Shown: positions 23,725 to 64,000 of the stretch, one piece after another | Layout: each line of letters opens with the position of its first letter | Numbering within the stretch: the stretch's first letter is position 1 | NCBI GenBank assembly: GCA_947497455.1 | Contig: CANMGU010000002.1 | Coordinates: 402,506-466,505 of the forward strand | Direction: 5' to 3' | DNA length: 64,000 nt | Source: an uncultured Sphingomonadaceae bacterium | Lineage (GTDB): Bacteria > Pseudomonadota > Alphaproteobacteria > Sphingomonadales > Sphingomonadaceae | Notes under the pieces: generated by a model | The model's database searches: none | What the model was told of the DNA's origin: nothing | Seen by the model: only the letters and a program-made list of their open reading frames with translations | Position numbers and translations under genes: made by a program

Positions 23725-23731
23725 TGAGAAT

Positions 23732-26897: not shown

Positions 26898-26944
26898 TTT
26901 TTTCACCGTCCTGTTCGCAGGGCAGTGTTTGCTGAGATATCAGA

Positions 26945-27978: not shown

Positions 27979-28032
27979 TCTAGGTATTACAATATTTTAG
28001 GCTGACGTCAGTCCGTTATGCAGCCGAAATAA

Positions 28033-40752: not shown

Positions 40753-40762
40753 CTCTGGTTCC

Positions 40763-41575: not shown

Positions 41576-43200
41576 ATCCGTGCCACTCCGAAAGCATTGG
41601 GGTGCAGCGTGCGGTTCTTGGCCTCGAAAATCGTTTCCAGAGCAAAGCCGAGCACCTTGCGCGTGTCACGCGGATCAATCACGCCGTTATCGAGAACGCG
41701 ACCAGAGGTGAAGAAAGCGCTTTCCTGTGCTTCGAAAATATCCCTGATACGCTGGTTCTGTTTGGCAATAGCTTCTTCGTCGGGTTCTACGCCTTTGCGC
41801 TGTGCCTGCACTTTTGCGACATGACTCATTGTGTTCGCCGCGGAAGCCCCGGCCATCACACCGGTTTTGGCATTGGGCCACGAGAATAGAAAATCCGGTT
41901 CAAAGGCAACGCCGCTCATGCCGTAATTGCCGGCACCAAAGCTGGCACCAATATAGAGGGATAGCTTCGGCACGCGCACATTGGACACGGCCTGGATCAT
42001 CTTGCTGCCCAGTTTGATCATGCCCTTATGTTCGGATTCCGTTCCGACAATATAGCCCGTGGTGTTGTTCAAGAAGATGATCGGCAGTTCGGACTGGTCA
42101 CAAAGCTGGAAGAAGTGCGTTGCCTTTGCCGCAGCTTCAGGGTCGAAAGGACCATTATTGCCGATCAGGCCGACGGCATGGCCCATGATGCTTGCCTGCA
42201 TACAAACGGTGCCGGGACCATAGCGGCTTTTGAATTCCTCAAAGTCAGATCCATCAACAATCCGCGCCGCGACTTCGCGGACGTCATAGGGGATGGTGTA
42301 ATCGGTCGGCACGATGCCAGCGATTTCATCGATGTCATAAACTGGTTCTGCATAGTCATTCTGCCGGATCGGTGCGGTATTCTTGTTCCAGTCAATCCGC
42401 CCCATGGTATCGCGGGCAATCTCGATGCCATGAGCATCATCATCCGCGAGATATTCGACGGTCCCGGTGGTGCTGGCATGCATTTCCGTGCCACCGAGTT
42501 CGCGATCATCCGCCACTTCGCCGGTCGCCGCATGGACCAAGGCCGCGCCGCCCAATGCTGCCATGCCATTATCGCGGACTCCGATGACATAGTCGGACAT
42601 GCCGGGCATATAAGCGCCGCCCGCGGTTGACGGGCCGTGCAGTACAACCATGGTCGGGATTCCTGCGGCGCTCAACCAGGCGAGATTGCGGAACAGCATT
42701 CCGCCATGCGCCCACAGCTCGACCTTATATTCCATCAGGTTTGCGCCAGCGCTTTCCACCAGATGGATGAAGGGCAATTTCAGTTCCTGCGCCATTTTCT
42801 GGGCACCCTTGCTGGCGTCCCAACCGCCAGTCGTCGCGGCCCCGGCGCGAATGCCGCTATCATCGACCCAGATCATGCAGCGCACGCCTTTGACAAAGCC
42901 GATGCCGAGGATGACGCTACCACCGGGAATACTGGTGTCGGGATTATCATCTTCAACGAGATAATTGGCCATATTATAGAGCCGCAAAAATGGCATGCCC
43001 GGGTCGAGCAATCGTGTCAGCCGTTCATGGGGTGTGAGCTGGCCGCGTTTCTCAAATGTCGGGCGGCGTTTCTCAGAGGCCGCTACGGCGCGCTGTTCCA
43101 GGCTGCGCAATTGGTCGATCAGCGTCAGCATATCCTTGCGGTTCTGGACAAAGCTTTCGGAAGCTGTGGAAATTTTCGATTTAAACTGGGGCATAGTCAA
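41572..43200 (-). CDS. atuC: Acyl-CoA carboxylase carboxyltransferase (beta) subunit, AtuC/geranyl-CoA carboxylase-like
   Basis: The 542-aa ORF is a two-domain carboxyl_trans protein (..GGSVILGIGFV.G..CMIWVDD.., ..GASFGAGNYGM..). It overlaps both neighbours by 4 nt. Confidence 0.85.
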   Translation of the reverse strand: MTMPQFKSKISTASESFVQNRKDMLTLIDQLRSLEQRAVAASEKRRPTFEKRGQLTPHERLTRLLDPGMPFLRLYNMANYLVEDDNPDTSIPGGSVILGIGFVKGVRCMIWVDDSGIRAGAATTGGWDASKGAQKMAQELKLPFIHLVESAGANLMEYKVELWAHGGMLFRNLAWLSAAGIPTMVVLHGPSTAGGAYMPGMSDYVIGVRDNGMAALGGAALVHAATGEVADDRELGGTEMHASTTGTVEYLADDDAHGIEIARDTMGRIDWNKNTAPIRQNDYAEPVYDIDEIAGIVPTDYTIPYDVREVAARIVDGSDFEEFKSRYGPGTVCMQASIMGHAVGLIGNNGPFDPEAAAKATHFFQLCDQSELPIIFLNNTTGYIVGTESEHKGMIKLGSKMIQAVSNVRVPKLSLYIGASFGAGNYGMSGVAFEPDFLFSWPNAKTGVMAGASAANTMSHVAKVQAQRKGVEPDEEAIAKQNQRIRDIFEAQESAFFTSGRVLDNGVIDPRDTRKVLGFALETIFEAKNRTLHPNAFGVARI

Positions 43201-45017
43201 AGCGCCTCTGCAAGTGATTGCGGTATGGAAATAGGAGTTGCGAGCAGGATCTGGGCATAGCTTTTACCCTGCGGATCATTGCGCATGGATGCAACCCCAC
43301 CGCCGCCGAGAATGTCATGAAGCAGAAAGTTGATCGCGCCTGTGCCGGGCATGTAGAACCGCTCGACGCTATCCGGGGCTTCGGGTTCCGTAAGGAAATG
43401 AGCAAAGCGTTCGCGCACCCTATCTTCGCTGAGCGTGGCCCATATATAAGGCGCATAGCTCTTGTTGCGCGGCATGATTCCAATATTGGATTTGTCGCCC
43501 TTGTCACCGGATCGACCCCAGGCCAGGTCAATCAGTGGCACCTCTATCATTGGCGCGCCATTGTCAGCCAGGGCAGGATGGGGAGGGCGTTGGATCGTCG
43601 CCGGGTCAAAAGCTGTTCCACCGGCATCGCCAAATTCTTGCGAGTCATCCTCTATCTTTACCGAAATCGAAATTTCGGATTTCGGTAACAGTAGTGAAAA
43701 TAGCCGCACCACCGGAGTGGGCTTGGGGCGCCCGCCTGCAAATAGCGCTAGTCCCGGCGGTGTCGCGAGACCCATGCCGGTTGCTTCCTTGAGGATGAGC
43801 ATCGCCGCTTTCGGATCACGATGTTTGACGCCGATTTTCAACACCACTTCGCGCGATTCCGCGGCCTGTCCGAACGCGCCGAAATGGCTATCGTCGCCCA
43901 GTGTCTCAATTAATACGTCATCAAAATCCCCGACATTGGAGGCGCGTAATTTGGCGCGTGTCCGTTTCAGCGCATTGTCCGCGAAGCTCTCGGCCTTGCG
44001 CTTGGCATCCACCCCGATGAAGAAAAACGGTGCAACCATTTTCCAGCCATCAGAGTAAGTGGCGCAAGTCTTGTAAGTATTGGGTGCGGGATGACCGATA
44101 GAGCCGAACACTGACACGCGATTCTCGCCCAACTGCTCCAATGCCACTGCACTGAAATCGCAGACGACGTCTGGTAGTATATAGGCTTGCGGATCACCAA
44201 TTTCATAGAGCATCTGCTCACCAATTGTGCCGATATTGACGATTCCGCCAGTGTCTTCCGGCTTGGTAGCGATGAAGCTGCCGTCTACTGCAATTTCCGC
44301 AATCGGATAGCCGGCATTGTCCATGCTTTCCGCGATGCTTTCCCAATCCGTGAAGTTGCCTCCGGTTGCTTGTGGTCCGCATTCCAAAATATGGCCGGCA
44401 AGGCTGGCCCCCGCCAGTTGGTCCAGATCATCGCGGCTCCAACCAAATTCGTGGATGCAGGCGCCGAGCGTCACGGCGCTATCAACGCATCGCCCAGTGA
44501 TCACTATGTCTGCTCCCTGATCGAGAGCAGCGGCAATCGGAAACGCGCCGAGATAAGCATTGATGCTGGCGATATTTTCTGGGTCAGGAAATTGCGCTCC
44601 AGAAAACATTTCATGGGCATCTGCAAATTCCGCCGCGCGGGATGTGAGGTCATCGCCGGTGACAACTGCCACATTCAGATCAAGCCCGGCCTCTGCAATC
44701 ACTGCGCGTACCGCTGTTGCACAAGCGAGCGGATTGGTACCGCCGGCATTGGAGATCAGCTTGACGCCCTGTTTCGCAATGGCGCCAATATGCGGTTTGA
44801 TCACTGCAGAGACGAAATCGGTTGCATAGCCGAGATTGGGATTTTTCGCCCGCGCCCGCGCCATGATCGACATGGTAATTTCCGCGAGATAATCGAAGAC
44901 GATATAATCAAGACCGCTGCCATTCTCCGCCGCTTTCAAAAGTTGCGGCACCGCCATATCGGACTCGCCCCAGAAACCACTGGCTCCGCCAATCCGGATG
45001 ATCTTGTCATTTGACAC
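43197..45017 (-). CDS. atuA: Acyclic terpene utilisation protein AtuA family (DUF1446 fused to a DUF4387-like C-terminal region)
   Basis: It has the N-terminus IRIGGASGFWGESDMAVPQLL....LDYIVFDYLAEITMSI and a C-terminal region with AWGRSGDKGDKSNIG. The length is 606 aa. Confidence 0.8.
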   Translation of the reverse strand: MSNDKIIRIGGASGFWGESDMAVPQLLKAAENGSGLDYIVFDYLAEITMSIMARARAKNPNLGYATDFVSAVIKPHIGAIAKQGVKLISNAGGTNPLACATAVRAVIAEAGLDLNVAVVTGDDLTSRAAEFADAHEMFSGAQFPDPENIASINAYLGAFPIAAALDQGADIVITGRCVDSAVTLGACIHEFGWSRDDLDQLAGASLAGHILECGPQATGGNFTDWESIAESMDNAGYPIAEIAVDGSFIATKPEDTGGIVNIGTIGEQMLYEIGDPQAYILPDVVCDFSAVALEQLGENRVSVFGSIGHPAPNTYKTCATYSDGWKMVAPFFFIGVDAKRKAESFADNALKRTRAKLRASNVGDFDDVLIETLGDDSHFGAFGQAAESREVVLKIGVKHRDPKAAMLILKEATGMGLATPPGLALFAGGRPKPTPVVRLFSLLLPKSEISISVKIEDDSQEFGDAGGTAFDPATIQRPPHPALADNGAPMIEVPLIDLAWGRSGDKGDKSNIGIMPRNKSYAPYIWATLSEDRVRERFAHFLTEPEAPDSVERFYMPGTGAINFLLHDILGGGGVASMRNDPQGKSYAQILLATPISIPQSLAEAL

Positions 45018-45085
45018 ATCGAGTCTCCTATGGTTATTTGAATAGCATTCGGCATTTTCGAGTCAAGCTCAATAAGGAACAGGTT

Positions 45086-45817
45086 TTGGCCACCAAAGCA
45101 GTCAATCCGGAGACACAGCGTGCCAAGCTGGAGCGCAAGGAGCGCGCTATTCTGGAAGCCGCGCGTGGCGTCTTTGTTGAGCATGGCTTTGATGGCGCAC
45201 GCATGTCCGAAATTGCCCGCCGCGCCAGCATCGGCGAAGGCACGATTTACAGCTATTATGAATCCAAAGCGGAATTGATGCTGACGGTGCTGCAGCAATT
45301 CTGGGATGGCCTGACATTGGAGGCGGAAGCTGTCATGGCGTCTAGCCAAGTGGATGGATTTTTTGAACGATTACAGGCACTTGCCCAATATCATCTGAGT
45401 ACGGTGATCGAGAATGCGGACTTTATCAACCTGACCTTTGCCCTGCGCCGCAACAATAGCGAAGTCAGCGTGTCACGGGATCATTTGCGCCATTATGTTG
45501 CGGTGTTTGATCAGCTGTTTCGGCGCGGACAGGATCGCGGGGAACTTCGGCGCGACGCTGTGCTCTGGCAGGCGCGTGATATATTTTACGGCACGCTGGA
45601 ATATAGCGCGCGGTCGATTGAAATGACGATGGATACAGACCGCACGGAGCGGCAGCAGGGACCGGTTGTGGATGAGATGATATCTCTGTTCCGCAGCCAT
45701 TATGCGGCGGCACATGATGCGGTTGAAACCGACAGGGCGACGCTGGATAGCCTGTCGTCGAAACTGGATCAGCTTTCCGAACAATTTGACGCGCTTTCCA
45801 GACGGCTACCCCAATAA
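45086..45817 (+). CDS. TetR-family transcriptional regulator (AtuR-like), divergent from the atuA operon
   Basis: It has a TetR HTH (ILEAARGVFVEHGFDGARMSEIARRASIGEGTIYSYYESK). I propose a TTG start at 45086 preceded by AAGGA; the 45011 ORF start would overlap atuA. Confidence 0.8.
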   Translation: MATKAVNPETQRAKLERKERAILEAARGVFVEHGFDGARMSEIARRASIGEGTIYSYYESKAELMLTVLQQFWDGLTLEAEAVMASSQVDGFFERLQALAQYHLSTVIENADFINLTFALRRNNSEVSVSRDHLRHYVAVFDQLFRRGQDRGELRRDAVLWQARDIFYGTLEYSARSIEMTMDTDRTERQQGPVVDEMISLFRSHYAAAHDAVETDRATLDSLSSKLDQLSEQFDALSRRLPQ

Positions 45818-45827
45818 ACGGCCCAAT

Positions 45828-45861
45828 AAAAAAAGGGCCCCCGAAGGAGCCCTTTCATTTT
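45828..45861. terminator. Bidirectional rho-independent terminator between the TetR gene and the convergent fadB-like gene
   Basis: The sequence is A7-GGGCCCC-CGAA-GGAGCCC-TTTCATTTT: an 8-bp stem with one mismatch, flanked by an A-run and a T-rich run. Confidence 0.6.
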
Positions 45862-45876
45862 CGTTTGTAAGCTGGC

Positions 45877-48066
45877 TTATGCCGCTTTGTAAAAGCTCTC
45901 ACCCGCATCCGCTTTTTCACGGAAGCTCATGGGCGGCTTGAACCGTTCGCCATATTTCTGTGCCAGCATATCGGCGGTGCGCACGAAATTATCGACGCCG
46001 ATCGTGTCGATATGGCTCATCGGCCCGCCGGTCCATGGCGCAAAGCCCCAGCCAAAGATCGCACCGAGATCTGCAGACTGCGGATCAGAGACAACGCCTT
46101 CGTCGAAACATTGCGCGGTGGCAATCAGCTGAATATACATCAACCGCTGTTTGACTTCCTCAACCGTTGGCTGGTCTTCGGCGAGCGGGAAATGCTCTTT
46201 CAGGCCGGGCCATAGTTTCTTGGAACCATCATCGGCATATTCATAGAATCCGCCACCAAAACGACGTCCGCGACGGTCAATCTTCTTGACCATCAGTTCC
46301 ATCAAATCCTCAGTCCCGCTTGGAACATAGGCGTCACCCATTTCCTCCTTGGTTGACGTCATGATGTCGTAACCGAGTTGCAAGGTGGTTTCGTCGACAA
46401 TCGCCAGCGGACCGATGGGCATGCCCATCGATATCGCTGCATTTTCGATCAGTGCTGGATTGACGCCCTCGGCCACCATCATGGTCGCTTCATTGGCATA
46501 TGGCGGGAAGACGCGGTTGGTATAAAAACCGCGTACGTCTTTCACCACAATCGGTGTCTTGCGGATCTTGGCGTTATAGTCGAGCGCCACGGCCAGGGCC
46601 TTATCGCCGGTTTTCTCACCCGGAATGATTTCGAGCAGTGGCATTTTCTCAACCGGTGAGAAAAAGTGCATGCCGATAAACTGATCCGGGCGCTCGCTGT
46701 TTTTCGCCAGGCCCGTAATCGGAAGCGTTGAGGTGTTGGATGCGAAGACCACATCCTTACCGATTACCGCCTCTGTCTTCTTGATCACGTCTGCTTTCAC
46801 GTCAGGACGTTCAAACACCGCTTCGATGATCAGATCGACATCTTTCAGATCATCATAATTATCGGTCGGTGTGATGCGCGCCATGAATGCATCTGCTTTC
46901 TCCTGAGTCATCTTGCCGCGCTTTACGCCTTTGTCGACAATCTTCTGGCTATAGTCGATTGCCTTTTGCGCTTCTTCCATATTGCGGTCGAGGACGATGA
47001 CTTTCATCCCGCCTTTGGCCGTTACATGGGTAATACCGGAGCCCATTAGACCGGCGCCGAGGACGCCAACAGTCTTGAGTTCGCTTGCCGGGACACCTTC
47101 GGGACGCATGGCGCCTTTGTCCGCTGCCTGTTTGTTCACGAACAAGGTTCGGATCATGTTTTTCGCTTGCGGGCCGGCGAGCAGCTTGGTGAAATATTTG
47201 CTTTCCACTTTAAGCGCGGTGTCGATGGGCAGCATCGAGCCTTCATATAGACAGGACAGGATCGCCTTGACCGCTTCATAATTGCCTTTGCTCTGTTTGA
47301 GCGCCATCGCGGACGAACCGAGATAAAGAGGTACAGCGCGCGGATCCATGGATCCAGCACCGCCAGGGAACTTCCAGCCCTTCTTGTCCCAGGGAGCAGA
47401 AGCTTTCGGATTGGCTTTCACCCACGCCTTGGCTTTAGCGACAACGTCTTCGGCAGGGACGACTTCATCAACAATTTTCTGCGCGAGAGCGGCCTGTGGG
47501 TTCATTGGCTGCCCCATCATGATTGCCATACCAGCAGCTTGCAATCCTGCGAGGCGCGGCAGACGCTGGGTTCCGCCACCACCGGGCAGCAGGCCAACTT
47601 GTACCTCAGGAAGGCCGAGTTGCAGTTTCGGATTGTCGGCACAGACGCGGTAGTGGCAGGCCAGAGCAAGCTCTAGACCACCGCCGAGAGCGAGGCCATT
47701 AAGCGCGCAAGCAACCGGTTTGGCGTGGGCCTTGCCTTTCAGCAAGTCCTTGGCGCTGTTGCCGCCGGTTTCCATTTTGCGCAGGATGGCATTCAAGCCC
47801 CAGGCTTGCTCGAACGCCTCTTTCATCGTTTCGGCCTTGGAGGAACCGAGCATGTTGAGATCGGCTCCGGCGAGGAAACCGGATTTCTTGCCTGAGGTAA
47901 TCACGGCGCCTTTGATGCCATCGTTGGCAATCAACTCATCAACGAATTTCGGGAAGTCAGCCATCAGGCCTTCGTTCCAGACGTTCATCGACTGGCCTGG
48001 AAGATCGATGGTGACGAGGGCAATGCCATCGCTGTCAATATCGACGGTGAGTGTTTCGTAAGTCAT
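45877..48066 (-). CDS. Multifunctional fatty-acid oxidation protein (enoyl-CoA hydratase / 3-hydroxyacyl-CoA dehydrogenase, FadB/FadJ-like)
   Basis: The 729-aa ORF has an N-terminal crotonase domain (GFLAGADL), a central NAD-binding motif VGVLGAGLMGSGI and 3HCDH C-terminal domains. Confidence 0.9.
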   Translation of the reverse strand: MTYETLTVDIDSDGIALVTIDLPGQSMNVWNEGLMADFPKFVDELIANDGIKGAVITSGKKSGFLAGADLNMLGSSKAETMKEAFEQAWGLNAILRKMETGGNSAKDLLKGKAHAKPVACALNGLALGGGLELALACHYRVCADNPKLQLGLPEVQVGLLPGGGGTQRLPRLAGLQAAGMAIMMGQPMNPQAALAQKIVDEVVPAEDVVAKAKAWVKANPKASAPWDKKGWKFPGGAGSMDPRAVPLYLGSSAMALKQSKGNYEAVKAILSCLYEGSMLPIDTALKVESKYFTKLLAGPQAKNMIRTLFVNKQAADKGAMRPEGVPASELKTVGVLGAGLMGSGITHVTAKGGMKVIVLDRNMEEAQKAIDYSQKIVDKGVKRGKMTQEKADAFMARITPTDNYDDLKDVDLIIEAVFERPDVKADVIKKTEAVIGKDVVFASNTSTLPITGLAKNSERPDQFIGMHFFSPVEKMPLLEIIPGEKTGDKALAVALDYNAKIRKTPIVVKDVRGFYTNRVFPPYANEATMMVAEGVNPALIENAAISMGMPIGPLAIVDETTLQLGYDIMTSTKEEMGDAYVPSGTEDLMELMVKKIDRRGRRFGGGFYEYADDGSKKLWPGLKEHFPLAEDQPTVEEVKQRLMYIQLIATAQCFDEGVVSDPQSADLGAIFGWGFAPWTGGPMSHIDTIGVDNFVRTADMLAQKYGERFKPPMSFREKADAGESFYKAA

Positions 48067-48120
48067 GAATTTTGTCCTGCTAAATATGGGATTGGAGTGA
48101 TTGGTGTCGCTTGCAGCGCT

Positions 48121-49335
48121 CTAGTTCACTCGCTCAATGATGGTGGCAATGCCCATGCCGCCGCCGATACACAGCGTCGACAAAGCGGTCTGTTTGTTGG
48201 AGCGTTCCAGCTCGTCCAGTACCGTGCCCAGGATCATCGCGCCCGTGGCGCCCAAAGGATGGCCCATGGCAATCGCGCCGCCATTCACATTGATATCGCT
48301 ATGATCGACATTCATCGCTTCCATGAAGCGCAGGACAACGGCTGCGAAAGCTTCGTTCAATTCCCACACGTCAATGTCGCTGGCATCCATGCCCGCGCGC
48401 TTGAGCGCTTTCTGGGCGGCAAATTCTGGGCCGGTTAACATGATGGTTGGCTCTGATCCGATCGAAGCCATGGAGACAATCCGGGCCCGCGGTTTCAGGC
48501 CGTATTTCGTGCCTGCCTCTTCATTACCAATCAGCACGGCTGCTGCACCGTCAACAATACCGGAGCTGTTCCCGGCATGGTGGACATGGTTCATTTTCTC
48601 GACATCGGGATGTTTGAGAATCGCGACATCGTTAAAGCCAGGCATCTGCTCACCCATCATCTGGAAAGCAGGATTGAGCGAACCCAATGACTGCATGTCG
48701 GTTTCGGGACGCATGAGCTCGTCACGGTCGAGCACGGTTTCACCAATCACATCTTTGATCGGAAGGATGGATTTTTCGAACCGCTTTTCTTCCCAGCTTT
48801 TGCCGGCACGTTTCTGGCTCTCGACCGCATAGGCGTCGACATCATCGCGGCTATAGCCATATTTGGTGGCGATCAGATCGGCGGAAATGCCTTGCGGCAC
48901 GAAATATTCCTGAAAAACCAAGGTCGGGTCAGCCATGCCGCCCAGACCATCGCTGCCCATTGGGATGCGGGACATGGACTCAACGCCGCCGCCAACGGCC
49001 AGATCAGCTTCGCCGGATTTAATCTTGCCGGCCGCAATATTCACCGCTTCCAGACCGGAACCGCAGAAACGGTTGACCTGAATCGCGGATGTGGTGTCAG
49101 CATAACCGGCTTTGAGGGCCGCCATACGGCTAATCACGGCACCTTGTTCACCGACGGGGGAGACACAGCCATAAGCAATATCTTCGACTTCATGACCATC
49201 CAGTTCGTTACGGTCGTTCACCGAAGCGAGCACTTGAGATGCGAGATCAAGAGCGGTGATTTCGTGCAAGCTGCCGTCGCTGCGGCCTTTCCCACGCGGG
49301 CTGCGCACAGCGTCATAAATATAGGCTTCGGTCAT
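48121..49335 (-). CDS. Acetyl-CoA C-acyltransferase (thiolase)
   Basis: It has the active-site Cys motif [11 protein letters not shown], a GHPLGATG-type C-terminal motif and CIGGGMG. Confidence 0.95.
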
Positions 49336-49367
49336 GCGTTATTCCTTATTTTGAAAAAATCTGAACT

Positions 49368-49385
49368 ATTAACTGCATAGTTAAT
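49368..49385. promoter_or_regulatory. Inverted repeat ATTAACT-N4-AGTTAAT upstream of the thiolase/fadB operon, a candidate operator
   Basis: It has perfect 7-bp arms and begins 33 nt upstream of the thiolase ATG. The function is inferred only. Confidence 0.3.
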
Positions 49386-49409
49386 GCTGCGCTGCAGCAC
49401 AGTCAAGCA

Positions 49410-49421
49410 GTTTACGTAAAC
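49410..49421. promoter_or_regulatory. Perfect 12-bp palindrome GTTTACGTAAAC in the same intergenic region, a candidate operator
   Basis: The palindrome is seen directly in the sequence. The function is inferred only. Confidence 0.3.
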
Positions 49422-49508
49422 GTCAATCGAGGAAAGGGGGCGACTCGCCTTGCTTTTCTTCTGCTGCTGGTCAGTCTAGTCCAGCCTTTAGCCGATTCAA
49501 GTCAAACC

Positions 49509-50669
49509 CTATTCAAGGATGCTTTGATATTTCTGGCTGAAGACATCGCGGCCAACGATATAGCGCATGATTTCTGAGCTACCGGCGTAGATTCTGCTCA
49601 TCCGTGCATCGGTGAAGATCCGGCTGATTTCATATTCCTTCATATAGCCCGCGCCGCCGTGTAGCTGCAATCCAAGGTCAGCCATTTCCCATTCAATTTC
49701 ACTGCCAAGCATCTTGCCCTTTGCGGCGATATTGGCATTGAGACCGCCTTGATTGTGCACTTCTACACAGTGGTCGATATAGACCTGCAGCATATCGATC
49801 TTGGCATCCATTTCGGCCATTTTAAACTGCGTGTTCTGCATGTCGCTCAGCTTTTTACCGAATACGTCGCGCTCCATCACAAACTCACGCGTAACATCAA
49901 AGGCCCGGCGCGCAGAAGCGCCGTAGCCGACCATGCCGATCAACCGCTCTTCTGCCAGGCCCTCCATCAGATGGATAAAGCCCTTGCCCGGTGTTCCGAG
50001 TTGGTTCTCTTTTGGTATTTTGACATTGTTGAAGAACAGCTCGGCCGTATCCTGCGCATGCAGTCCGATTTTCTCTAGATTCTGGCCACGCTCAAACCCT
50101 TCCATACCACGCTCGACGATAAGCAATACCATCGCATGTTTGTCATCCACGCCTGCGATTTTGGCGGCAACAATCACCACATCCGCGTTGATACCGTTGG
50201 AGATATAGGTCTTGGAGCCGTTCAACTCCCAATGATCGCCATTGTCCGTTGCGGTTGTCTTCATTCCCGAGAGGTCACTGCCTGCGCCAGGTTCAGTCAT
50301 CGCTACCGCCAATATGGTATCACCGCTGACGCATTTGGGCAGGAATCGCTCGCGCTGTTCTTCGTTGCCGATATTCTTGAAATACGGCCCGACCAGACGG
50401 CTATGCAGTGTGTTATACCACTCGGCGCAGCCCGCCCTAGTGGTTTCCTCAATAATGATCTGCTCATAGCGGAAATCATCATCGCCCATGCCGCCATATT
50501 TTTCATCCGGCCAGATCATCAGGAAGCCCTGATCACCCGCTTTCTTGAATATTTCGCGATCAACAATGCCGGCCTCACGGAATTCATCCATCCGTGGTGC
50601 AACTTCATCGGCCAGAAAGCGGCGATAGGCATCACGGAACATATGCTGTTCTTCGGTAAACTTACGCAT
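49509..50669 (-). CDS. Acyl-CoA dehydrogenase
   Basis: The 386-aa ORF has typical ACAD three-domain organisation (..AMTEPGAGSD.., ..QLHGGAGYM.EY...R...DAR...IY.G..EI). Confidence 0.9.
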   Translation of the reverse strand: MRKFTEEQHMFRDAYRRFLADEVAPRMDEFREAGIVDREIFKKAGDQGFLMIWPDEKYGGMGDDDFRYEQIIIEETTRAGCAEWYNTLHSRLVGPYFKNIGNEEQRERFLPKCVSGDTILAVAMTEPGAGSDLSGMKTTATDNGDHWELNGSKTYISNGINADVVIVAAKIAGVDDKHAMVLLIVERGMEGFERGQNLEKIGLHAQDTAELFFNNVKIPKENQLGTPGKGFIHLMEGLAEERLIGMVGYGASARRAFDVTREFVMERDVFGKKLSDMQNTQFKMAEMDAKIDMLQVYIDHCVEVHNQGGLNANIAAKGKMLGSEIEWEMADLGLQLHGGAGYMKEYEISRIFTDARMSRIYAGSSEIMRYIVGRDVFSQKYQSILE

Positions 50670-55817: not shown

Positions 55818-55897
55818 TTTTAATCTCCTCTTGTAATAATACTACATATGTGTAGTAATTGCATTTCATCAGGATTGTCAATAATGAAGGACTTTGC

Positions 55898-56326
55898 ATG
55901 TCTGCGTCGGACCATCGCCTCTATTTCATGCTGCAGCGTGTTGCACATTGCTTGAAGAAAAGTGCAGACACTGCTCTTAAGCAAACGGCGGGACTGACAA
56001 CGGCGCAAGCGGCTGCGTTGTCCATCATTGCCAAGGATGGACCGGTGACGCAGCGCTTTGTGGCGAACAAGCTTTCTCAACGGGAAAGTGCCGTCATGAC
56101 TATGGCAAACCGATTATTGGCCGCTGACTATATTAGCAGAAAGCGATCGGCCTCCGACGGAAGAGCATGGGAACTGGCCGTGACGCCAAAGGGAAAGATT
56201 GCGCTCAGTGATATCCGCATTCCATTTGGCGAGATTAATGCACTGATCGATGAAAGTCTCTCGGCCGCCGAGGTCAAAGAATTGGCAGGGAGCCTTGGAA
56301 AGATAATCACCGCGCTGGACGGTTAG
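55898..56326 (+). CDS. MarR-family transcriptional regulator
   Basis: It has a winged-HTH pattern (LT.AQAAALSIIAKDGPVTQRFVANKLSQRESAVMTMANRLLAADYISRKRS..DGRAWEL.VT.KG). It is divergent from the amidohydrolase gene. Confidence 0.8.
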   Translation: MSASDHRLYFMLQRVAHCLKKSADTALKQTAGLTTAQAAALSIIAKDGPVTQRFVANKLSQRESAVMTMANRLLAADYISRKRSASDGRAWELAVTPKGKIALSDIRIPFGEINALIDESLSAAEVKELAGSLGKIITALDG

Positions 56327-56821: not shown

Positions 56822-57595
56822 ATGAATCTCAAAGACAAAATCATCGTGATTACGGGCGCTGCGAGTGGCATTGGCGCAGCGATGGCGCGGCGCTTCTCAG
56901 AAGCTGGCGCGAAGCATGTCATATGTGCAGACCGGGATCTGGCCGGTGCGCAGGCGGTAGCAGCCGACATTGGCGGAACGGCAATTCAAACCGATGTTTC
57001 TTCAGAGGCTGACATTACCTCCCTGATCGAGACCGTAGAGAATGATATCGGTCCGATTGCGCTGTTTGTATCCAATGCGGGCATCATCATGGAAGGTGGT
57101 GTCGAGGTTACCGACAACGACTGGCAGAAAATATGGGATATCAACGTTCTCGCCCATATTCGTGCAGCTCGCATCATGGTTCCGAAAATGCTTGCACGCG
57201 GTGGCGGCTATATCCTGAGCACGGCATCGGCAGCGGGCCTGCTTGCCCAAATCGGTTCGGCTCCTTACTCGGTGACTAAACATGCTGCAGTCAGTTTTGC
57301 CGAGTGGCTCGCCATTACCCATGGGGACGAAGGGCTGAAAGTGTCCGTATTGTGCCCGCAGGGTGTGGCCACCGCGATGACGGCCGATATAGATACCTCA
57401 ACGGTTGCGAAAGACGGCATGCTGACAGCCGAAGCGGTTGCCCAGATCACGCTTGATGCGATTGAGGAAGAGCGCTTCTTGATCCTGCCGCATCCGCAAG
57501 TCGCTGATTATATCAAGCAAAAGGGTAGTGACCCAGAGCGTTGGATATCTGGCATGCAAAGGTGGCAAGCAATGCTGATGTCAGGGAAGGGATAG
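56822..57595 (+). CDS. Short-chain dehydrogenase/reductase (SDR)
   Basis: It has the cofactor motif ITGAASGIGAA, NAG, and the catalytic YSVTKHA. Confidence 0.85.
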   Translation: MNLKDKIIVITGAASGIGAAMARRFSEAGAKHVICADRDLAGAQAVAADIGGTAIQTDVSSEADITSLIETVENDIGPIALFVSNAGIIMEGGVEVTDNDWQKIWDINVLAHIRAARIMVPKMLARGGGYILSTASAAGLLAQIGSAPYSVTKHAAVSFAEWLAITHGDEGLKVSVLCPQGVATAMTADIDTSTVAKDGMLTAEAVAQITLDAIEEERFLILPHPQVADYIKQKGSDPERWISGMQRWQAMLMSGKG

Positions 57596-57691
57596 TCAAA
57601 AGTCCTAACAATAATGGCCTGATAAAATGGAGCGTTGGGAAGACGTTCCGGTGCGACTAGCCTCCCGCGTAAATATAGAGGAGGATTCGAA

Positions 57692-58624
57692 ATGGCATTG
57701 GTATCTGTTGTTGGCGCAACCGGGCGTCAGGGTTTGGCTCAAATCAGGCAACTGGGCGCCACTGGCCACAGAGTTCGGGCATTGTCCCGCAGCGAAACAC
57801 CCGATCTTGGTGGCAGCAATATTGCCGATGAAGCGCGAATTTTCGATCTCTATGACGAGGAAACCTGGGTACCGGCTTTTGAAGGTTCTGACGCGGTATT
57901 CTATACCCATCCGCTGCAAGCGCGAGAAGATCGGGCAACGCTGACCGGGCGGGTTGCTGCTGCGGTTCAAAAAGCGGGCGGAAAGCGTTTTATCTGGAAC
58001 ACATCGAGCTGGATCCCGGAGCGTCCGGGTGATCCATTCACCTATGGCAATAACACGATCGCGGTAAATTCGATCTTCCGGTCAGGTGTGCCCGCGACGG
58101 TTTTTGGATCAGTCCTTTTCATGGACAATCTCCTGACCAACTGGGCGCGGCCGTTCATCGTCGACGAAAGCCGCTATGTCTATCCGCATGAGGCGCATCT
58201 GGAAGCAAACTGGATTAGCCTGGATGATGTCGGCAAATGTATGGTGGCTGCGATGGACCGCCCTGATTTCGAAGGGTCATGGCTAAATATCGGTGGACCG
58301 CAGCGGATCAAACCGCCGCAGGTTGCCGAAATTTTGTCGAAAGTCTTCGGTCGCGAGATCAAATATGATCCTTGCACACCGACAGAATTTGGTGACCTTT
58401 TGGTGGGTGCCTTCGGTGATGATGTGCCGGAAGAAAACCGTGAAACCATGTCTGCCGGCATTGCTGCCTTTTATGAATATAACAACAAGGCAGAGACCAA
58501 ACCATTCTGGGTCAATACCGATTTCGTGCAGCAGCGCCTGCCTGAGGTTGAGTTTGAAACGCTCGAACAATGGGCCGCGCGGCAGGACTGGTCAGACAGT
58601 GCGCACAGACCACCCGCAGGATAA
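57692..58624 (+). CDS. NmrA-family NAD(P)-binding protein
   Basis: The ATG at 57692 has a GAGGAG RBS. It carries the motif VSVVGATGRQG and has NmrA-like length. Confidence 0.8.
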   Translation: MALVSVVGATGRQGLAQIRQLGATGHRVRALSRSETPDLGGSNIADEARIFDLYDEETWVPAFEGSDAVFYTHPLQAREDRATLTGRVAAAVQKAGGKRFIWNTSSWIPERPGDPFTYGNNTIAVNSIFRSGVPATVFGSVLFMDNLLTNWARPFIVDESRYVYPHEAHLEANWISLDDVGKCMVAAMDRPDFEGSWLNIGGPQRIKPPQVAEILSKVFGREIKYDPCTPTEFGDLLVGAFGDDVPEENRETMSAGIAAFYEYNNKAETKPFWVNTDFVQQRLPEVEFETLEQWAARQDWSDSAHRPPAG

Positions 58625-59465: not shown

Positions 59466-60029
59466 ATGTCTATGCGTTACAGCGAAACCGAGCGGATTTA
59501 TGACGAGCTGTTGCTGACCCGGATCCAGGCCGGGGACCGGCACGCGGGCGAACGATTGGCGGCAAGATGGCATCCGCGCTTGATGCGGACGGCCTATCGG
59601 CTTTTGCGCGATGAGGAACAGGCGCGTGTTGCGGTTCAGGAGGCGTGGAGCGGCATTTGCAAAGGATGGCGCGGTTTGCGCAATCCATCGCGCTTTCCGG
59701 CATGGGCTTATACAATCCTGCACCGCAAATGCGCGGATCAGATTGGCAGAAACCAGAAGTATCGGAACCGCCATGCCGTTGTTGTTGAAGATGCGGAAAT
59801 TTCCGTAGCACCGCGCGGCGAAGATAAGGTCACGATTGATCAGGCCTTTGATCGGTTAAGCGACGATCATCGAACAACCGCTCTGCTCTATTTCGGTGAA
59901 GGGCTGACCATTAAGGAAATTGCTGCGGTGACGGGTGCAGCAATCGGGACAGCAAAATCCCGCCTGTTTCACGCGCGCCGACATTTAAAGGCCGCACTAG
60001 ATGACGAACTTTATGAAGGAGAATCATGA
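59466..60029 (+). CDS. ECF-type RNA polymerase sigma-70 family factor
   Basis: It has region 2 (..RLMRTAYRLLRDEEQARVAVQEAW...) and a region 4 HTH (GLTIKEIAAVTGAAIGTAKSRLFHARRHLK). Confidence 0.85.
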   Translation: MSMRYSETERIYDELLLTRIQAGDRHAGERLAARWHPRLMRTAYRLLRDEEQARVAVQEAWSGICKGWRGLRNPSRFPAWAYTILHRKCADQIGRNQKYRNRHAVVVEDAEISVAPRGEDKVTIDQAFDRLSDDHRTTALLYFGEGLTIKEIAAVTGAAIGTAKSRLFHARRHLKAALDDELYEGES

Positions 60030-60403
60030 TGACAAAATTTGATGATAAGCTGGGCGCTACGCTGAGTGCCGAGGACAAGGCTTTCCTCCAGGATCTCGAA
60101 AATGGTCGCGGCCTTTTTGAGCAACTGGGTGCTACCTTGCAAGGGCCGATGCGCTTCTGGTCCTATTTGATCACGATCATAACATTCTTCGTTGCGATGG
60201 GCGCATTCTATGCTGGTTGGCGCGCCTTTAACGCTGTTGACACGAGAGAAATAATATTGTGGTCGGCCGGCGTTATACTTCTTTTCATGATGGTCGGTTT
60301 TTCGAAGAACTGGATTTTCCAGAGAATGAATTTGCTGTCGGTCCTAACTGAGCTGAAAGCCCTGGAATTGCGCGTCGTGCAATTGAGCGACAGGCTGAAA
60401 TAA
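60026..60403 (+). CDS. Small two-TM membrane protein, translationally coupled to the ECF sigma gene (possible anti-sigma or accessory factor)
   Basis: Its ATGA start overlaps the sigma gene stop. It has two hydrophobic segments (FWSYLITIITFFVAMGAFYAGW, IILWSAGVILLFMMVGF) and a C-terminal amphipathic helix. Confidence 0.5.
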   Translation: MMTKFDDKLGATLSAEDKAFLQDLENGRGLFEQLGATLQGPMRFWSYLITIITFFVAMGAFYAGWRAFNAVDTREIILWSAGVILLFMMVGFSKNWIFQRMNLLSVLTELKALELRVVQLSDRLK

Positions 60404-60410
60404 TCGTGGC

Positions 60411-61421
60411 TCAGGCGATCATCCGTTCAATGAACCAATAGGTTGCGATGATACCAATCGCATAGGAAGTTGCTGTCTTTGTGGGTTGGAGCCATGGCTG
60501 CTGAAAGCGGCGGATTAGTGCCAGCAGAGCGAAGGCAATCGCGACAATCAGCAATTGTCCGATTTCAACGCCAAGGTTAAAGGTCAACAACGCCATCGGA
60601 ATGTCGTCCTGCGGCAATCCGATCTCGGCCAAGGCACCGGCAAAACCAAAACCATGGAGTAGGCCGAAAAGAAAAGCGACGATCCACGGGAAGCGTTCTG
60701 AAAGACGTGGTCCATGGGTGTCATGATCCCTCTGCGCCTTGACGATCTCGACCGCGAGGAAAATAATCGACAGGGCGATGATCGCTTCAACTGGCTGAGA
60801 GGGTAGGGACATATAGCCGAGCGTAGAGCCGATTAGGGTGATGCTGTGCGCGATCGTGAAGGCGGTAACTGTTTTTGCAACGAGCCAGCCGCCTTTCAGT
60901 AAAAGGACAAGTGCCAGGACGAATAGAAGGTGGTCGAAGCCGAGTATGATATGCTCGATACCGATGACGGTATAGGTCCACGCAACGTTAGCAATTGCGT
61001 CTTTTTGTGCGATTGTTGCGACAGAGGCCTTGGGTGTCAGTCGAAGGGTTTGTGTTTCTTCGCCAATCGGTGCGATCCTCACCAGAGCATCGGTGGTGCT
61101 GAGCTCCAAGCCTTTCAATCCAACAATCTCACCTGCGATCGACCCCGTGCATTTGATGGACCGGGTGGTGATGATATTGGTTGCCGCAAATCGTTTTTCC
61201 GTTTCACCGATTTGAGTGCAATTGCCGGGCAAAATCACCTCACCCGATCGGCCCAACCGCGAGCGCTCGGATGCTTTCCACAACAGATGCCAATCGCTTT
61301 CAGATTGTTGCGTGAATTCGACATAGGCTGGACGCAGTTCATCAGCGCTGGCTGGCGAAACAGAGATTAATGTGCAGATTATGAGCGCTAGAGTAGAGAG
61401 ACAAAATTTCATGGGCGACAT
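60411..61421 (-). CDS. HupE/UreJ-family membrane protein with a roughly 140-aa N-terminal periplasmic extension
   Basis: A signal peptide is followed by an extra soluble region and then the HupE core (GIEHIILGFDHLLFVLALVLLL, multiple TM segments, LHGFGFA). Confidence 0.8.
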   Translation of the reverse strand: MSPMKFCLSTLALIICTLISVSPASADELRPAYVEFTQQSESDWHLLWKASERSRLGRSGEVILPGNCTQIGETEKRFAATNIITTRSIKCTGSIAGEIVGLKGLELSTTDALVRIAPIGEETQTLRLTPKASVATIAQKDAIANVAWTYTVIGIEHIILGFDHLLFVLALVLLLKGGWLVAKTVTAFTIAHSITLIGSTLGYMSLPSQPVEAIIALSIIFLAVEIVKAQRDHDTHGPRLSERFPWIVAFLFGLLHGFGFAGALAEIGLPQDDIPMALLTFNLGVEIGQLLIVAIAFALLALIRRFQQPWLQPTKTATSYAIGIIATYWFIERMIA

Positions 61422-61422
61422 T

Positions 61423-62244
61423 TCATCGACGCCCGGTAACTGTCACATCATATTGCTCTCGGTATCTGTTCAATGTCGCCTCTTCCTGGGTCTCTGTTTG
61501 CGCTGCGCGCCAGTCATTGGTGACGCGTTGGCGAGCGTCCTCAAGCCTGCTGGCTTTTCCGGGTATTTTGGTGGTGATCTTGACCAGGTGAAGGCCGAAG
61601 CCCGATAGGATTGGCCCTTGCCAGTTGCCGGTTTCCAAGCCGGCCAGGGAACTTGCAAATTTCTCGCCAAACTGACGCGATATATCTGCAGTTTCTGCTC
61701 TGCGCAGTTGACCGGGTAACGAAATCGGTCGTCCAGCATCCTCAGATTGAATTGTGCCCTGGTTCAGATCGCTTATCAACTGGGCGATACGCGCATCATC
61801 GCGCGTGTCTGGTTGTCCAAGATAGATTTGCTCCAGATCATAGAGCGAAGACTGCGCATATCTTTTCGGATGTTCATCCAGCCATTTTTGCAAAACCGCG
61901 TCGGTCGGTTCCTTTGCCACCATCTCTTCATTGTCGAGGAATCGCATTTTTGTGAACAGACGACGACGGATAACAGGATCGTTGCGATCGAGGCCAAGGC
62001 GCAGGGCCTCGCGATAATAAATTTCTTCCCTGATCTCCTGATCGATCAAACCATCTAGCTCGGATTCCGTTGGCGCACGGCGAAAATTTTGCACCCAGCC
62101 CGCCTTCAACCGATCGATATCGGTTTCACTGATGGTGATCTCATAGTCCGCTGGATCGCGGTTCGATCCCGTCGCCCAGAAAAATGCGAAGACCAATAAT
62201 GCCCCGCCCAGAAAATGGACTAGAGGCTCTTTCAGCAACTTCAT
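61423..62244 (-). CDS. Membrane-anchored parvulin-like peptidyl-prolyl isomerase family protein (Rotamase_2-like)
   Basis: It has an N-terminal TM segment (FLGGALLVFAFFWA), a SurA-N-like helical region (IREEIYYREALRLGLDRNDPVIRRRL) and a C-terminal WQGPILSGFGLHLVKI. Confidence 0.65.
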   Translation of the reverse strand: MKLLKEPLVHFLGGALLVFAFFWATGSNRDPADYEITISETDIDRLKAGWVQNFRRAPTESELDGLIDQEIREEIYYREALRLGLDRNDPVIRRRLFTKMRFLDNEEMVAKEPTDAVLQKWLDEHPKRYAQSSLYDLEQIYLGQPDTRDDARIAQLISDLNQGTIQSEDAGRPISLPGQLRRAETADISRQFGEKFASSLAGLETGNWQGPILSGFGLHLVKITTKIPGKASRLEDARQRVTNDWRAAQTETQEEATLNRYREQYDVTVTGRR

Positions 62245-62292
62245 CTCTGCACGATACTCCTGATGTGCCGCGCTGGTCGCGCAGCTATATGG

Positions 62293-63999
62293 TCAGCTTG
62301 TTGAAGCGCTTGGTGTATACCAGATCGGTGATGAATAGGCCCGTTCCTGCTGGATCTTGATGACATCATCCGGGAGTGTCAGGCCGAATTTCAGCGCATC
62401 ATAAACCGGCCATGTTGGTGTTGGTATTTCGAGCACACGCACATAGTAAAATGCATTTTGCTGCGCTTCGAAATCGGGATCTCGCCACCATGTTATGAGT
62501 TCCGGCGCGCCGATATTATTTTCCCAGGTACCCTTGGTGAGATCCACAGTATTGCCGACGGCGGTCAGTTTTCCGTCAGCGCTCACCGTGCGGCTATCAG
62601 GACTGCTCCAGCTGACATTGTAGATTTTCTCTTGCGATTTTCCGTCGGCATCAATCCATCCTTTGACCACCTGGATCCGATCAAGATTAGCACTTTCAGG
62701 GTCCATCAGAGCGGAAATGAGGAAGCTTGGAGACTTTCCTTCTCCACCTGTGAGATCACCTCCCATCGGAACACCCTTGGCGTAGCCGGTTTTGACCAGA
62801 TCACCGGTGTCGCCTTCGGCAAAGTCAAAACCGCCAAAGAAACGCACCTGCATACGTGGGCCAGTTGTTGCATAAACTTCGCGGCGCATCATCGCATCAA
62901 AAATCGCTTCGCGCGTGTTGCTGGTTGCCCAGACTGCGGCATAGCCACTCGACAGATAGTGCCAGCCAAACCGGCCTCTGCGTGTGCCAAGATTTTGCGG
63001 CGCCATTGCGCGGTCTTTGTTGTTGATCTCGTTGCCGCTGTGCTTGCCGTAAAAATTATTCTCGTCCGCGGTGGCCAGTGACGTATGGCTGTCGGTTGAA
63101 CCGATCATGCCAAATTTGAACGGATTAGCGCCCATTTTCTGTGTGAATTCCAGACCGCGCTTCAAGGCTTCGCGGGCATAGCTGCCGCTATAGCTTTCCG
63201 GAGGCATATCCTTGCCGCAACTCAGATTGCATTTGTCCCAACCGGCATCGCCATAATTGGCAAATTCATCGTTGGGAGAGAGGAATGGATGGCTTTCACT
63301 GTCGCCCTTAATCTGGGTGACCTCGACAATGGGCTCGCGCAGAGCACGCGTTTTAATATAGGCCTCATCGATCGGACTGCCGTCCAGCTTGTTCATCGCA
63401 AACATGCGGCCGTTAGACACATTGCTGTTATGCGGGATAGCCAGGACTTTTCCGCCCGTGCTTTTTTCATAGGCGGCCATATAGGCCCAAAGCTGTTCCG
63501 GATCGCCGGCGTCAAAGCTGGCGAAGGGGAGCATGGTGCTAGTCTTGTCGGCACCGTCACGGAACATAACGACGCGATGCAGATTATCTCCGCCAGGCAT
63601 GGGCGTATATTCAAAGCCGTGAAAAGCAGTAAACTTGCCGGGCTCGTTATACTCATCCAGCGTCTCGCCATGTTCTGTCCACAGCGATTTGATCCGATCG
63701 GCCGATTCTTCCGGGTCGAAAAGACCTTCGGGCAAAGTCCCGGCAGCCGCGCCGTCGATGAGCTCAGCCGTGACCGCCAGCGAACCTTCGTCGCTTTCGT
63801 GCATCATATCATACCACCGGAGTAAAAAATCATTGCCTAAAAGTGCAATGCGCGGCGCTTCATAAAGCGCCTTGGTCGCACCTACGGCGTCGCTGTGATC
63901 CGCGATTACCAGAAAGTCGAGAGGGCGGGAGAGCTTGGCCTTTTCGCCCTTGGTTGCGGTCACTTCCTCGCCTTTGGCGAAGCGCAACGCTGCCTCGGT
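62293..63999 (-). CDS. DUF3604-family protein, probable metal-dependent PHP-like hydrolase; the N-terminus lies beyond the window edge
   Basis: The frame is open to nt 63999. His/Asp-rich motifs are present (VIADHSDAVG, FHGFEYTP, AIPHNSNVSNG, GSTDSHTS). The size and pattern resemble DUF3604. Confidence 0.65.
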   Translation of the reverse strand, partial: TEAALRFAKGEEVTATKGEKAKLSRPLDFLVIADHSDAVGATKALYEAPRIALLGNDFLLRWYDMMHESDEGSLAVTAELIDGAAAGTLPEGLFDPEESADRIKSLWTEHGETLDEYNEPGKFTAFHGFEYTPMPGGDNLHRVVMFRDGADKTSTMLPFASFDAGDPEQLWAYMAAYEKSTGGKVLAIPHNSNVSNGRMFAMNKLDGSPIDEAYIKTRALREPIVEVTQIKGDSESHPFLSPNDEFANYGDAGWDKCNLSCGKDMPPESYSGSYAREALKRGLEFTQKMGANPFKFGMIGSTDSHTSLATADENNFYGKHSGNEINNKDRAMAPQNLGTRRGRFGWHYLSSGYAAVWATSNTREAIFDAMMRREVYATTGPRMQVRFFGGFDFAEGDTGDLVKTGYAKGVPMGGDLTGGEGKSPSFLISALMDPESANLDRIQVVKGWIDADGKSQEKIYNVSWSSPDSRTVSADGKLTAVGNTVDLTKGTWENNIGAPELITWWRDPDFEAQQNAFYYVRVLEIPTPTWPVYDALKFGLTLPDDVIKIQQERAYSSPIWYTPSASTS

Positions 64000-64000
64000 G

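Follow-up and report, generated by a model that had tools for sequence, protein, structure and literature searches.

A widespread gene triad of a DUF3604 protein, a SurA-like chaperone and a HupE-type membrane protein as a candidate periplasmic metalloenzyme maturation module

Three adjacent genes in a 64,000-nucleotide (nt) stretch of DNA from an uncultured Sphingomonadaceae bacterium (contig CANMGU010000002.1, positions 402,506 to 466,505; the whole stretch is called the window below) encode a protein of the DUF3604 family, a predicted membrane-anchored chaperone and a membrane protein of HupE/UreJ type. We find that these genes form a triad that recurs across distant bacteria and whose members are functionally linked beyond reasonable doubt, and we propose, at a probability of roughly 45%, that the triad acts as a unit dedicated to folding an exported hydrolase of the PHP type in the periplasm and loading it with metal. 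A reading of the same DNA from its letters and open reading frames (ORFs), without database searches (the sequence-only reading), had suggested that a metal permease and a folding helper serve a secreted metal-dependent hydrolase, and had held the combination to be undescribed; our literature searches likewise returned no description of this gene combination, nor of DUF3604 function. Our analysis bears out that earlier interpretation in part.

Results

Layout of the triad

The three genes lie on the minus strand and fill the last 3.6 kb of the window in the ORF listing, which confirms the earlier description of three co-directional genes with gaps of 48 and 1 nt. The features are as follows:

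62293..64000, minus strand: DUF3604 gene, 3' 1.7 kb, 568 codons plus stop; the ORF is open at the window end
62245..62292, minus strand: spacer of 48 nt between the DUF3604 and chaperone genes (ORF listing)
61423..62244, minus strand: predicted membrane-anchored SurA/PrsA-type chaperone with a parvulin-like domain, 273 amino acids (Pfam, AlphaFold2, Foldseek)
60411..61421, minus strand: HupE/UreJ-type membrane protein, 336 amino acids (Pfam PF13795, conservation)
61344-61421, minus strand: signal peptide of the HupE-like protein, residues 1-26
60975-61343, minus strand: periplasmic N-domain of the HupE-like protein, residues 27-149
60414-60974, minus strand: six-helix HupE_UreJ_2 domain, residues 150-336

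The translated DUF3604 frame holds no stop in the 568 codons up to position 63999, and its 5' part, some 65-69 codons with a lipoprotein signal peptide and an HxH motif, falls beyond the window end. A single nucleotide (61422) separates the chaperone and HupE genes in the window copy. The family labels first given to the three products (DUF3604, Rotamase_2-like and HupE/UreJ) are borne out by Pfam, and the motifs quoted from them (ADHSD, HGFEY, PHNSN, DSHT and GPILSGFGLHLVKI) all occur in the translations. The window resembles a chromosome of Parasphingorhabdus type. In the closest locus (L001), the DUF3604 protein is 96% identical and the other two proteins 82% and 87% identical; a divergently transcribed ORF lies directly upstream of DUF3604 in that locus, so the three genes look like an operon of their own. 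Hydrogenase and urease families had no Pfam match among 55 of the 58 non-overlapping window ORFs of at least 150 amino acids (those left out lie at 55859-56326, 56822-57595 and 57635-58624), as the sequence-only reading had stated, and such genes are also absent from eight contexts of other taxa (L081-L088).

The three genes travel together across phyla

Among the 80 best Sphingomonadales genome loci, 66 carry all three genes in unchanged order, four end at a contig edge after the second gene, and ten are lone DUF3604 paralogues. The three genes keep this order on replicons of Pseudoalteromonas donghaensis (L081), Rhodobacter sp. CZR27 (L082) and Rhizobium leguminosarum WSM1325 (L083) and, with two tandem DUF3604 genes, of Sinorhizobium medicae (L084); DUF3604 is also followed by Rotamase_2 and HupE_UreJ_2 genes in Algoriphagus boseongensis (Bacteroidota), in a Thermoanaerobaculia metagenome-assembled genome (MAG) and in Acinetobacter tandoii. 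The triad is hence conserved well beyond one genome, in at least three phyla, and its flanking genes are unrelated between taxa and mostly have no metal link. Plasmid and chromid records add 79 with DUF3604 matches and 76 with a full-length HupE-like protein (at least 80% coverage), largely from the same genera.

As an independent test of linkage, we searched metagenome contigs with an alignment of HupE-like proteins and examined 80 loci. By strict adjacency, the chaperone gene stands immediately before HupE in 64 of them; three more carry it at a wider spacing or masked by a merge artefact, and 11 start too near the HupE-like gene for this neighbor to be judged. DUF3604 lies beside the pair in 39 of the 41 loci with informative flanks, upstream in ~29 and downstream in ~10; it is missing at L098 and L169, and L145 carries a truncated DUF3604 relic. 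Moreover, the identities of the three proteins to their window copies co-vary (Spearman 0.88-0.95, n=73).

In 64 of 73 related loci, a 4-nt overlap joins the chaperone gene to HupE, and the two genes are predicted to be usually translationally coupled; the spacer between DUF3604 and the chaperone gene ranges in related loci from small overlaps to ~140 nt. Two to three tandem DUF3604 genes are served by one chaperone-HupE pair in six loci (L051, L058, L078, L084, L122 and L139), and several pairs per single DUF3604 were never seen among the loci examined; because the sharing runs in this direction and never in reverse, DUF3604 appears to be the one client of two accessory membrane proteins. Two apparent chaperone-HupE fusions (P0376 and P0423) were rejected, as their junctions look like a frameshift and an internal deletion, and a further one in L139 proved to be an over-extended ORF.

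The families concerned are large: the HupE-like partner was found in 2,281 clusters at 50% identity (E 1e-30 or better), and at 90% identity DUF3604 makes up over 8,000. A search for proteins similar to the chaperone gave close Parasphingorhabdus relatives only and added nothing on distribution. One DUF3604 subfamily, typified by the Pseudoalteromonas protein, keeps 70-85% identity across Vibrio, Shewanella, Paracoccus, Acinetobacter, Microbulbifer, Bacteroidota and the Thermoanaerobaculia MAG, and such identity across distant taxa suggests horizontal spread. A rhizobial version (L172, H161-H167) consists of two DUF3604 genes, the chaperone, HupE and an uncharacterized protein of 201 amino acids, and is 99-100% identical between accessory or conjugative plasmids of S. 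meliloti and S. medicae, which argues for recent horizontal transfer. The S. meliloti copies sit on accessory plasmids of strains other than 1021, and the 18 matching records include no replicon of strain 1021.

Some triads show further elaborations. A second, short HupE gene adjoins the triad in Pseudoalteromonas (L081, 6891-8525, minus strand), where it is of the HupE_UreJ_2 type and is followed by an uncharacterized 175-residue protein and a DUF6488 protein, and in R. leguminosarum (L083, 13036-13635, minus strand), where it belongs to the classical HupE_UreJ type. In two metagenome loci (L169, 3673-4734; L109, 3832-4977), the gene immediately upstream of the chaperone-HupE pair encodes a secreted protein; the two proteins, of 353 and 381 amino acids, are homologous (23% identity, E=2e-18) and have an N-terminal CxxC motif and no Pfam match. 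That of L169 stands in the place of DUF3604 and could be either another client or a fourth component. A DUF3604 subgroup from metagenome loci (L109, L116, L142 and L168) carries a C-terminal extension of ~150-250 residues, for 742-893 amino acids in total, and still has the chaperone and HupE genes next in line.

DUF3604 is an exported protein with a PHP-like model

The window protein scores 742.6 bits (E=4e-223) with the Pfam DUF3604 family (PF12228), whose cut-off is 20.4. As this match spans positions 31-591 of the 591 in the profile, the window lacks no more than the N-terminus. A full-length homologue of 633-637 amino acids that is 96% identical to the window protein (L001, P0121) supplies it: a lipoprotein signal peptide (…AISGC) is followed by WGDTHLHT, which contains the HxH motif. 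Nearly all DUF3604 homologues have a lipobox or an ordinary signal peptide, and no twin-arginine motif was noted among their N-termini, so the protein should be exported unfolded. By these signals DUF3604 is a Sec-exported periplasmic protein, usually a lipoprotein, and since export is by Sec, folding and metal insertion would take place outside the cytoplasm. The "secreted hydrolase" of the sequence-only reading therefore stands as to export, and the signal peptide whose prediction it had called for is present in the homologue; the protein is better described as periplasmic, usually a lipoprotein, than as released from the cell.

We next consider the fold. An AlphaFold2 model of the 96%-identical homologue, built from a 135-sequence alignment, has a mean predicted local distance difference test score (pLDDT) of 84.9 and a predicted template modeling score (pTM) of 0.88. 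Its best Foldseek match in the PDB is 3e38 (E=1.1e-6, probability 1.00, 9% identity), 7ug9, the PHP domain of RNase AM (E=7.6e-4), is also among the top ones, and its top match in a viral library is a phage PHP-domain protein (E=1.1e-7). The protein thus models as a PHP-fold barrel, and the C-terminal third of the model is a beta-sandwich with weak matches only.

The PHP ligand set, as in YcdX, comprises an N-terminal HxH, a further His, a Glu, two more His and a C-terminal D-x-H. Nine DUF3604 residues that are invariant in 135 sequences of 37-93% identity (H48, H50, D56, H100, E195, H206, H255, D368 and H370) follow the expected order, the HxH being read from homologues since it lies outside the window, and many Arg, Asn, Glu and Trp residues outside the candidate ligands are invariant as well. 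These invariant His, Asp and Glu residues, which occur at the motifs that had first been called PHP-like, could form a trinuclear metal site in the model, and together with the many Arg they fit such a site acting on an anionic substrate.

The lone DUF3604 paralogues stand in contexts of their own. Three (L040, L041 and L050, 6247-9716) directly follow an MFS_2 transporter gene, with Amidohydro_2 and TetR genes nearby; three (L035, L053 and L066) directly follow FA_hydroxylase and OYE-like reductase genes; and one (L072, 4610-9701) directly follows a TonB-dependent receptor gene. In all three checkable cases (L006/L040, L009/L041 and L007/L072), the genome with a lone paralogue also holds the triad. 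These contexts hint at periplasmic catabolic roles for the DUF3604 family; the position beside organic-solute and uptake genes suggests organic substrates, and that HupE is not simply an importer of the product.

The second protein resembles SurA and PrsA

The chaperone matches Pfam Rotamase_2 (PF13145) at E=1.3e-12 over residues 113-239. It has an N-terminal transmembrane helix at about residues 6-25 and a parvulin-like domain at about residues 134-227 (window 61564-61845). Its AlphaFold2 model (pLDDT 85.1) is matched by Foldseek to SurA (9hg7, 1m5y and 2pv3), CBF2 (5ez1), PEB4 (3rfw) and PrsA (5htf and 4wo7), with E from 1e-7 to 3e-5 and probability 1.00, and a profile match to SurA (E=4.6e-7) agrees; isolated parvulin domains (SurA P2, BB0108 and Pin1) match the model with a target-normalized template modeling (TM) score of ~0.6. 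The predicted architecture is that of SurA and PrsA: the N- and C-terminal parts make up a helical chaperone module, into which the parvulin domain is inserted.

Parvulins use two His, a Cys or Asp and a Ser or Thr for catalysis (H59, C113, S154 and H157 in Pin1). Not every parvulin domain is catalytically active: SurA P1 and the one in PpiD, for example, are not. By alignment, the position of the first catalytic His is Gln139 in the window protein and is conserved as such in at least 90% of diverse triad chaperones; the loop with the GGDLG motif and its acidic or Cys residue, present in SurA P2, has no counterpart, and the second catalytic His (H219) and S214 are retained, as is the C-terminal motif SGFGLH219. 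Since the first catalytic His is replaced and the GGDLG-type loop is missing, the protein is probably a dedicated membrane-anchored chaperone rather than an isomerase, perhaps without isomerase activity. Thus, of the "TM-anchored parvulin-like PPIase" proposed earlier, the anchor, the SurA-like helices and the folding-helper fold hold up, and the label of peptidyl-prolyl isomerase (PPIase) probably does not.

The third protein keeps the HupE signature and gains a periplasmic domain

The HupE-like protein matches Pfam HupE_UreJ_2 (PF13795) with 162.6 bits (cut-off 24.5, E=7.6e-48, residues 150-305) and, more weakly, HupE_UreJ (32.3 bits, cut-off 23). Between signal peptide and membrane domain it has a periplasmic domain of ~120 residues with few conserved positions. 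In HupE/UreJ permeases the signal peptide leaves a mature N-terminus that starts with His. The mature N-terminus of the triad protein reads H-E-x-R-P in Rhizobiales, Rhodobacterales, Gammaproteobacteria, Bacteroidota and Acidobacteriota, and D-E-L-R-P in the window and every Sphingomonadales examined; this conserved His/Asp-Glu start resembles a metal ligand.

The first transmembrane helix (TM1) contains H157-I-I-L-G161-F-D163-H164, that is, H-x3-G-x-DH, where the published HupE signature is HPXXGXDH (PMC7689651). Of 27 diverse triad proteins, at least 95% keep the H, G, D and H of the signature, and these four do not vary in alignment A3; the Pro is lost. H192, E212, E225, H256, N282, E286 and Q289 of the membrane domain are also conserved in at least 95%, so that the earlier label of a HupE/UreJ-type membrane protein is upheld by the TM1 signature and many invariant polar residues in the membrane helices. 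Signature and polar residues would fit a pathway for metal cations.

A short HupE_UreJ_2 gene occurs on the E. coli IncC plasmid pECO-dc1b (L089, 4033-6238), divergent from rcnR-like and rcnA Ni/Co efflux genes; on its flanks are a hypothetical gene and one for a "transmembrane anchor protein". This context hints faintly at a Ni/Co link for the HupE_UreJ_2 branch.

Upstream sequences

Promoter- and terminator-like sites in window positions 60000-64000 do not exceed shuffled-sequence counts. At the level of Parasphingorhabdus, the element TGACGYTACGGCA is conserved ~25-30 nt ahead of a TTGCAC-N17-TATAGT-like promoter before DUF3604 (L001 ~7690-7790 and equivalent positions in L009, L012, L016, L026, L029 and L073, all outside the window). 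It is kept although the upstream neighbor genes differ, and may be a regulator site; it matched no known operator.

Discussion

A proposed maturation module

From these observations we infer that the three genes would make up an operon, self-contained and mobile by horizontal transfer, for producing and maturing a single exported metalloenzyme. In the proposed sequence of events, DUF3604 would cross the inner membrane unfolded via Sec and fold in the periplasm into a PHP-type barrel with a C-terminal beta-sandwich, whose His, Asp and Glu ligands would accommodate as many as three divalent metal ions. Translational coupling would fix the ratio of chaperone to HupE-like channel, and the two, probably side by side in the inner membrane, would form a station that holds the newly exported apo-enzyme and loads it with the correct metal, delivered via the HupE-like protein or presented by it. 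The mature enzyme would then hydrolyze an anionic substrate in the periplasm, probably a phosphoester.

We also considered a bolder version, in which the chaperone and the HupE-like protein would be an enzyme-specific extracytoplasmic metallation complex that captures the Sec-exported apo-hydrolase, the channel acting as a local metal source or metallochaperone and not as an importer; such a complex would insert a metal that Zn or Cu would otherwise outcompete in the open periplasm (Ni, Co, Mn or Fe, for example). This version we regard as doubtful. If true, it would mark the first periplasmic system dedicated to inserting metal into a hydrolase, and would give a role to DUF3604 as well as to the HupE_UreJ_2 subfamily with the extra periplasmic N-terminal domain.

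Several observations weigh against a folding and metal-loading unit. TM-scores of the DUF3604 model to 3e38 are low (0.27/0.45), owing to large insertions; DUF3604 has no match to the Pfam PHP family and no sequence or profile match in the PDB, and hhalign of its alignment against E. coli YcdX gave a probability of ~1%. With these sequence and profile searches negative, the PHP assignment draws on the fold and the motifs. The ten lone paralogues among the 80 Sphingomonadales loci have no partners in cis. The literature names CT_425 of Chlamydia trachomatis as a DUF3604 protein, in a single table entry, and we know of no HupE homologue in that species. Fusions, which might have spoken for contact between chaperone and HupE, came down to two that look artefactual. 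An Rfam scan of seven diverse loci returned no riboswitch or other RNA family, and the upstream regions compared across taxa hold no recognizable Zur, Fur, NikR or Pho box. Finally, characterized HupE/UreJ proteins import Ni or Co into the cytoplasm (PMC7689651), and a cytoplasmic importer would therefore be of no obvious help to a periplasmic enzyme.

Alternative explanations

That last point leads to the most serious rival, an acquisition pathway in which DUF3604 would cleave a metal-chelating phosphoester or metallophore in the periplasm, HupE would import the freed cation, and the chaperone would aid assembly only. Besides the importer precedent, the His/Asp-Glu of the mature HupE-like N-terminus faces the periplasm, as it would for metal capture from outside; the lone paralogues beside a TonB receptor or MFS_2 gene indicate that DUF3604 enzymes can join uptake routes; and the flexible gene order, with DUF3604 upstream or downstream of the pair, is easily accommodated. 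We nevertheless consider this pathway rather improbable, because it leaves unexplained a dedicated chaperone that is almost always present and coupled to HupE, because MFS_2 is an organic-solute transporter and so suggests an organic product, not a metal ion, and because the upstream regions compared hold no recognizable sites for metal-starvation regulators. Less probable still is a role in metal homeostasis or resistance, with HupE moving surplus Ni, Co or another metal and DUF3604, as a phosphatase of the periplasm, sequestering metal by way of the phosphate it frees or of its own trinuclear site. The rcnR-rcnA neighborhood of the short HupE_UreJ_2 gene on the IncC plasmid is compatible with it, as are the P-type metal ATPase and cupredoxin gene ~6 kb from the Pseudoalteromonas triad and the frequency of the module on conjugative and accessory plasmids, but the flanks differ in every taxon examined, mostly have no metal link, and the module comes without a metal-sensing regulator.

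DUF3604 might also be no enzyme at all, but a metal-scavenging lipoprotein that acts as the substrate-binding partner of a HupE channel. An exported, membrane-tethered protein beside a metal channel, with an invariant multi-His/Asp site predicted to bind up to three metals, would suit this role; a fold of ~600 residues that looks enzymatic, with its many invariant Arg, Asn, Glu and Trp besides the ligands, would not, nor would the catabolic-looking contexts of the lone paralogues. DUF3604 is furthermore the most conserved of the three proteins between the window and L001 (96% against 82% and 87%), as expected of a catalyst, and we judge the scavenger to be very unlikely. That the adjacency is meaningless, a product of chance or local synteny, is scarcely credible: the triad is kept across Proteobacteria, Bacteroidota and Acidobacteriota amid unrelated flanks, and a different bait recovered DUF3604 with the pair in 39 of 41 informative metagenome loci.

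Comparison with known systems

For the folding and metal-loading unit that we prefer, the nearest analogue in logic is ycdX-ycdY-ycdZ of E. coli, which encodes, in the same order, a PHP trinuclear-metal hydrolase, a dedicated chaperone and a small polytopic membrane protein. YcdY reportedly takes part in the maturation of Zn-dependent YcdX (PMC4464133). The resemblance does not extend to the proteins themselves: YcdX is cytoplasmic and small (245 amino acids) and has no detectable sequence or profile similarity to DUF3604; YcdY belongs to the TorD/NarJ family and is not SurA-like; YcdZ is a DUF1097 protein and not HupE/UreJ; and the triad, to judge from its export signals, acts outside the cytoplasm.

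HupE/UreJ Ni/Co permeases share with the triad protein the Pfam family, a signal peptide, the TM1 signature and a gene placed beside that of a presumed client metalloenzyme. The triad protein differs in its extra periplasmic domain of ~120 residues, in the lost signature Pro and, in the window, in its Asp N-terminus, and its surroundings lack the hydrogenase, urease or B12 context of HupE/UreJ clusters. Because the client enzyme here is periplasmic, import into the cytoplasm is probably not the whole story.

By predicted fold, the chaperone joins SurA, PrsA, PEB4, H. pylori CBF2 (HP0175) and PpiD, which likewise carry a parvulin domain within a helical chaperone module, and it is membrane-tethered like PrsA and PpiD. 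Foldases of SurA/PrsA type are general and encoded away from their clients, whereas the triad chaperone is encoded with a single client family and coupled to a putative metal channel. TerC proteins of Bacillus subtilis (MeeF and MeeY) metalate Sec-exported Mn enzymes (PMC10550928). They too provide the right metal to a Sec-exported enzyme outside the cytoplasm through a transporter-like membrane protein, but they belong to another family, act generally, are not encoded with their clients and have no dedicated chaperone.

The best structural match of DUF3604, BVU_3505 of Bacteroides vulgatus (3e38), is a PHP-like predicted phosphoesterase that also has two domains, although it is about half the size. 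We know of no partner genes of BVU_3505.

By what route Sec-exported enzymes come by the correct metal once beyond the cytoplasm is for the most part an unsolved question, to which the work on TerC in Bacillus is a recent first answer (PMC10550928). The triad appears to be an uncharacterized, widespread variant of the theme of an enzyme with dedicated accessory factors, and as it brings together a candidate client, chaperone and metal channel in one operon, it makes the question of metallation directly testable. The module is compact, widespread and mobile, and it occurs in culturable Rhizobium, Sinorhizobium, Vibrio, Acinetobacter and Pseudoalteromonas. Should the proposal be true, it would offer a first functional handle on the large DUF3604 family and on the HupE_UreJ_2 branch, whose inherited label of "hydrogenase/urease accessory" misfits the context of the triad.

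Other features of the window

A gene for an extracytoplasmic function (ECF) sigma factor (59466-60029, plus strand) overlaps by 4 nt the gene for a DUF6768 membrane protein (60026-60403, plus strand), which may be an anti-sigma partner for it. Together the two genes (59466-60403) run toward the triad, and their end lies 7 nt from the stop codon of HupE; they were rejected as a part of the module, since only the closest Parasphingorhabdus loci keep them.

A TerC-family membrane protein, from the family implicated in metalating exported enzymes in Bacillus, is encoded at 18202-18930 (plus strand), unlinked to the triad. An origin-proximal gene set lies at 14994-26133 (hemE, rho, mnmE, gidA (mnmG), gidB, parA and parB), and the window probably adjoins the chromosomal replication origin. 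A minus-strand catabolic cluster at 33871-50669 resembles those for acyclic-terpene or leucine degradation and encodes AtuA, a carboxyltransferase, an enoyl-CoA hydratase, a biotin carboxylase, a family III CoA-transferase, an acyl-CoA dehydrogenase, a thiolase and a TetR regulator. One DUF4402 gene lies at 1464-2015 (minus strand) and a second within 26397-30792 (plus strand), where it is followed by genes for a 364-residue protein without a Pfam match and a 919-residue protein with CarboxypepD_reg-like matches only; the genes at 26397-30792 may form a surface-fibre or usher-type cluster.

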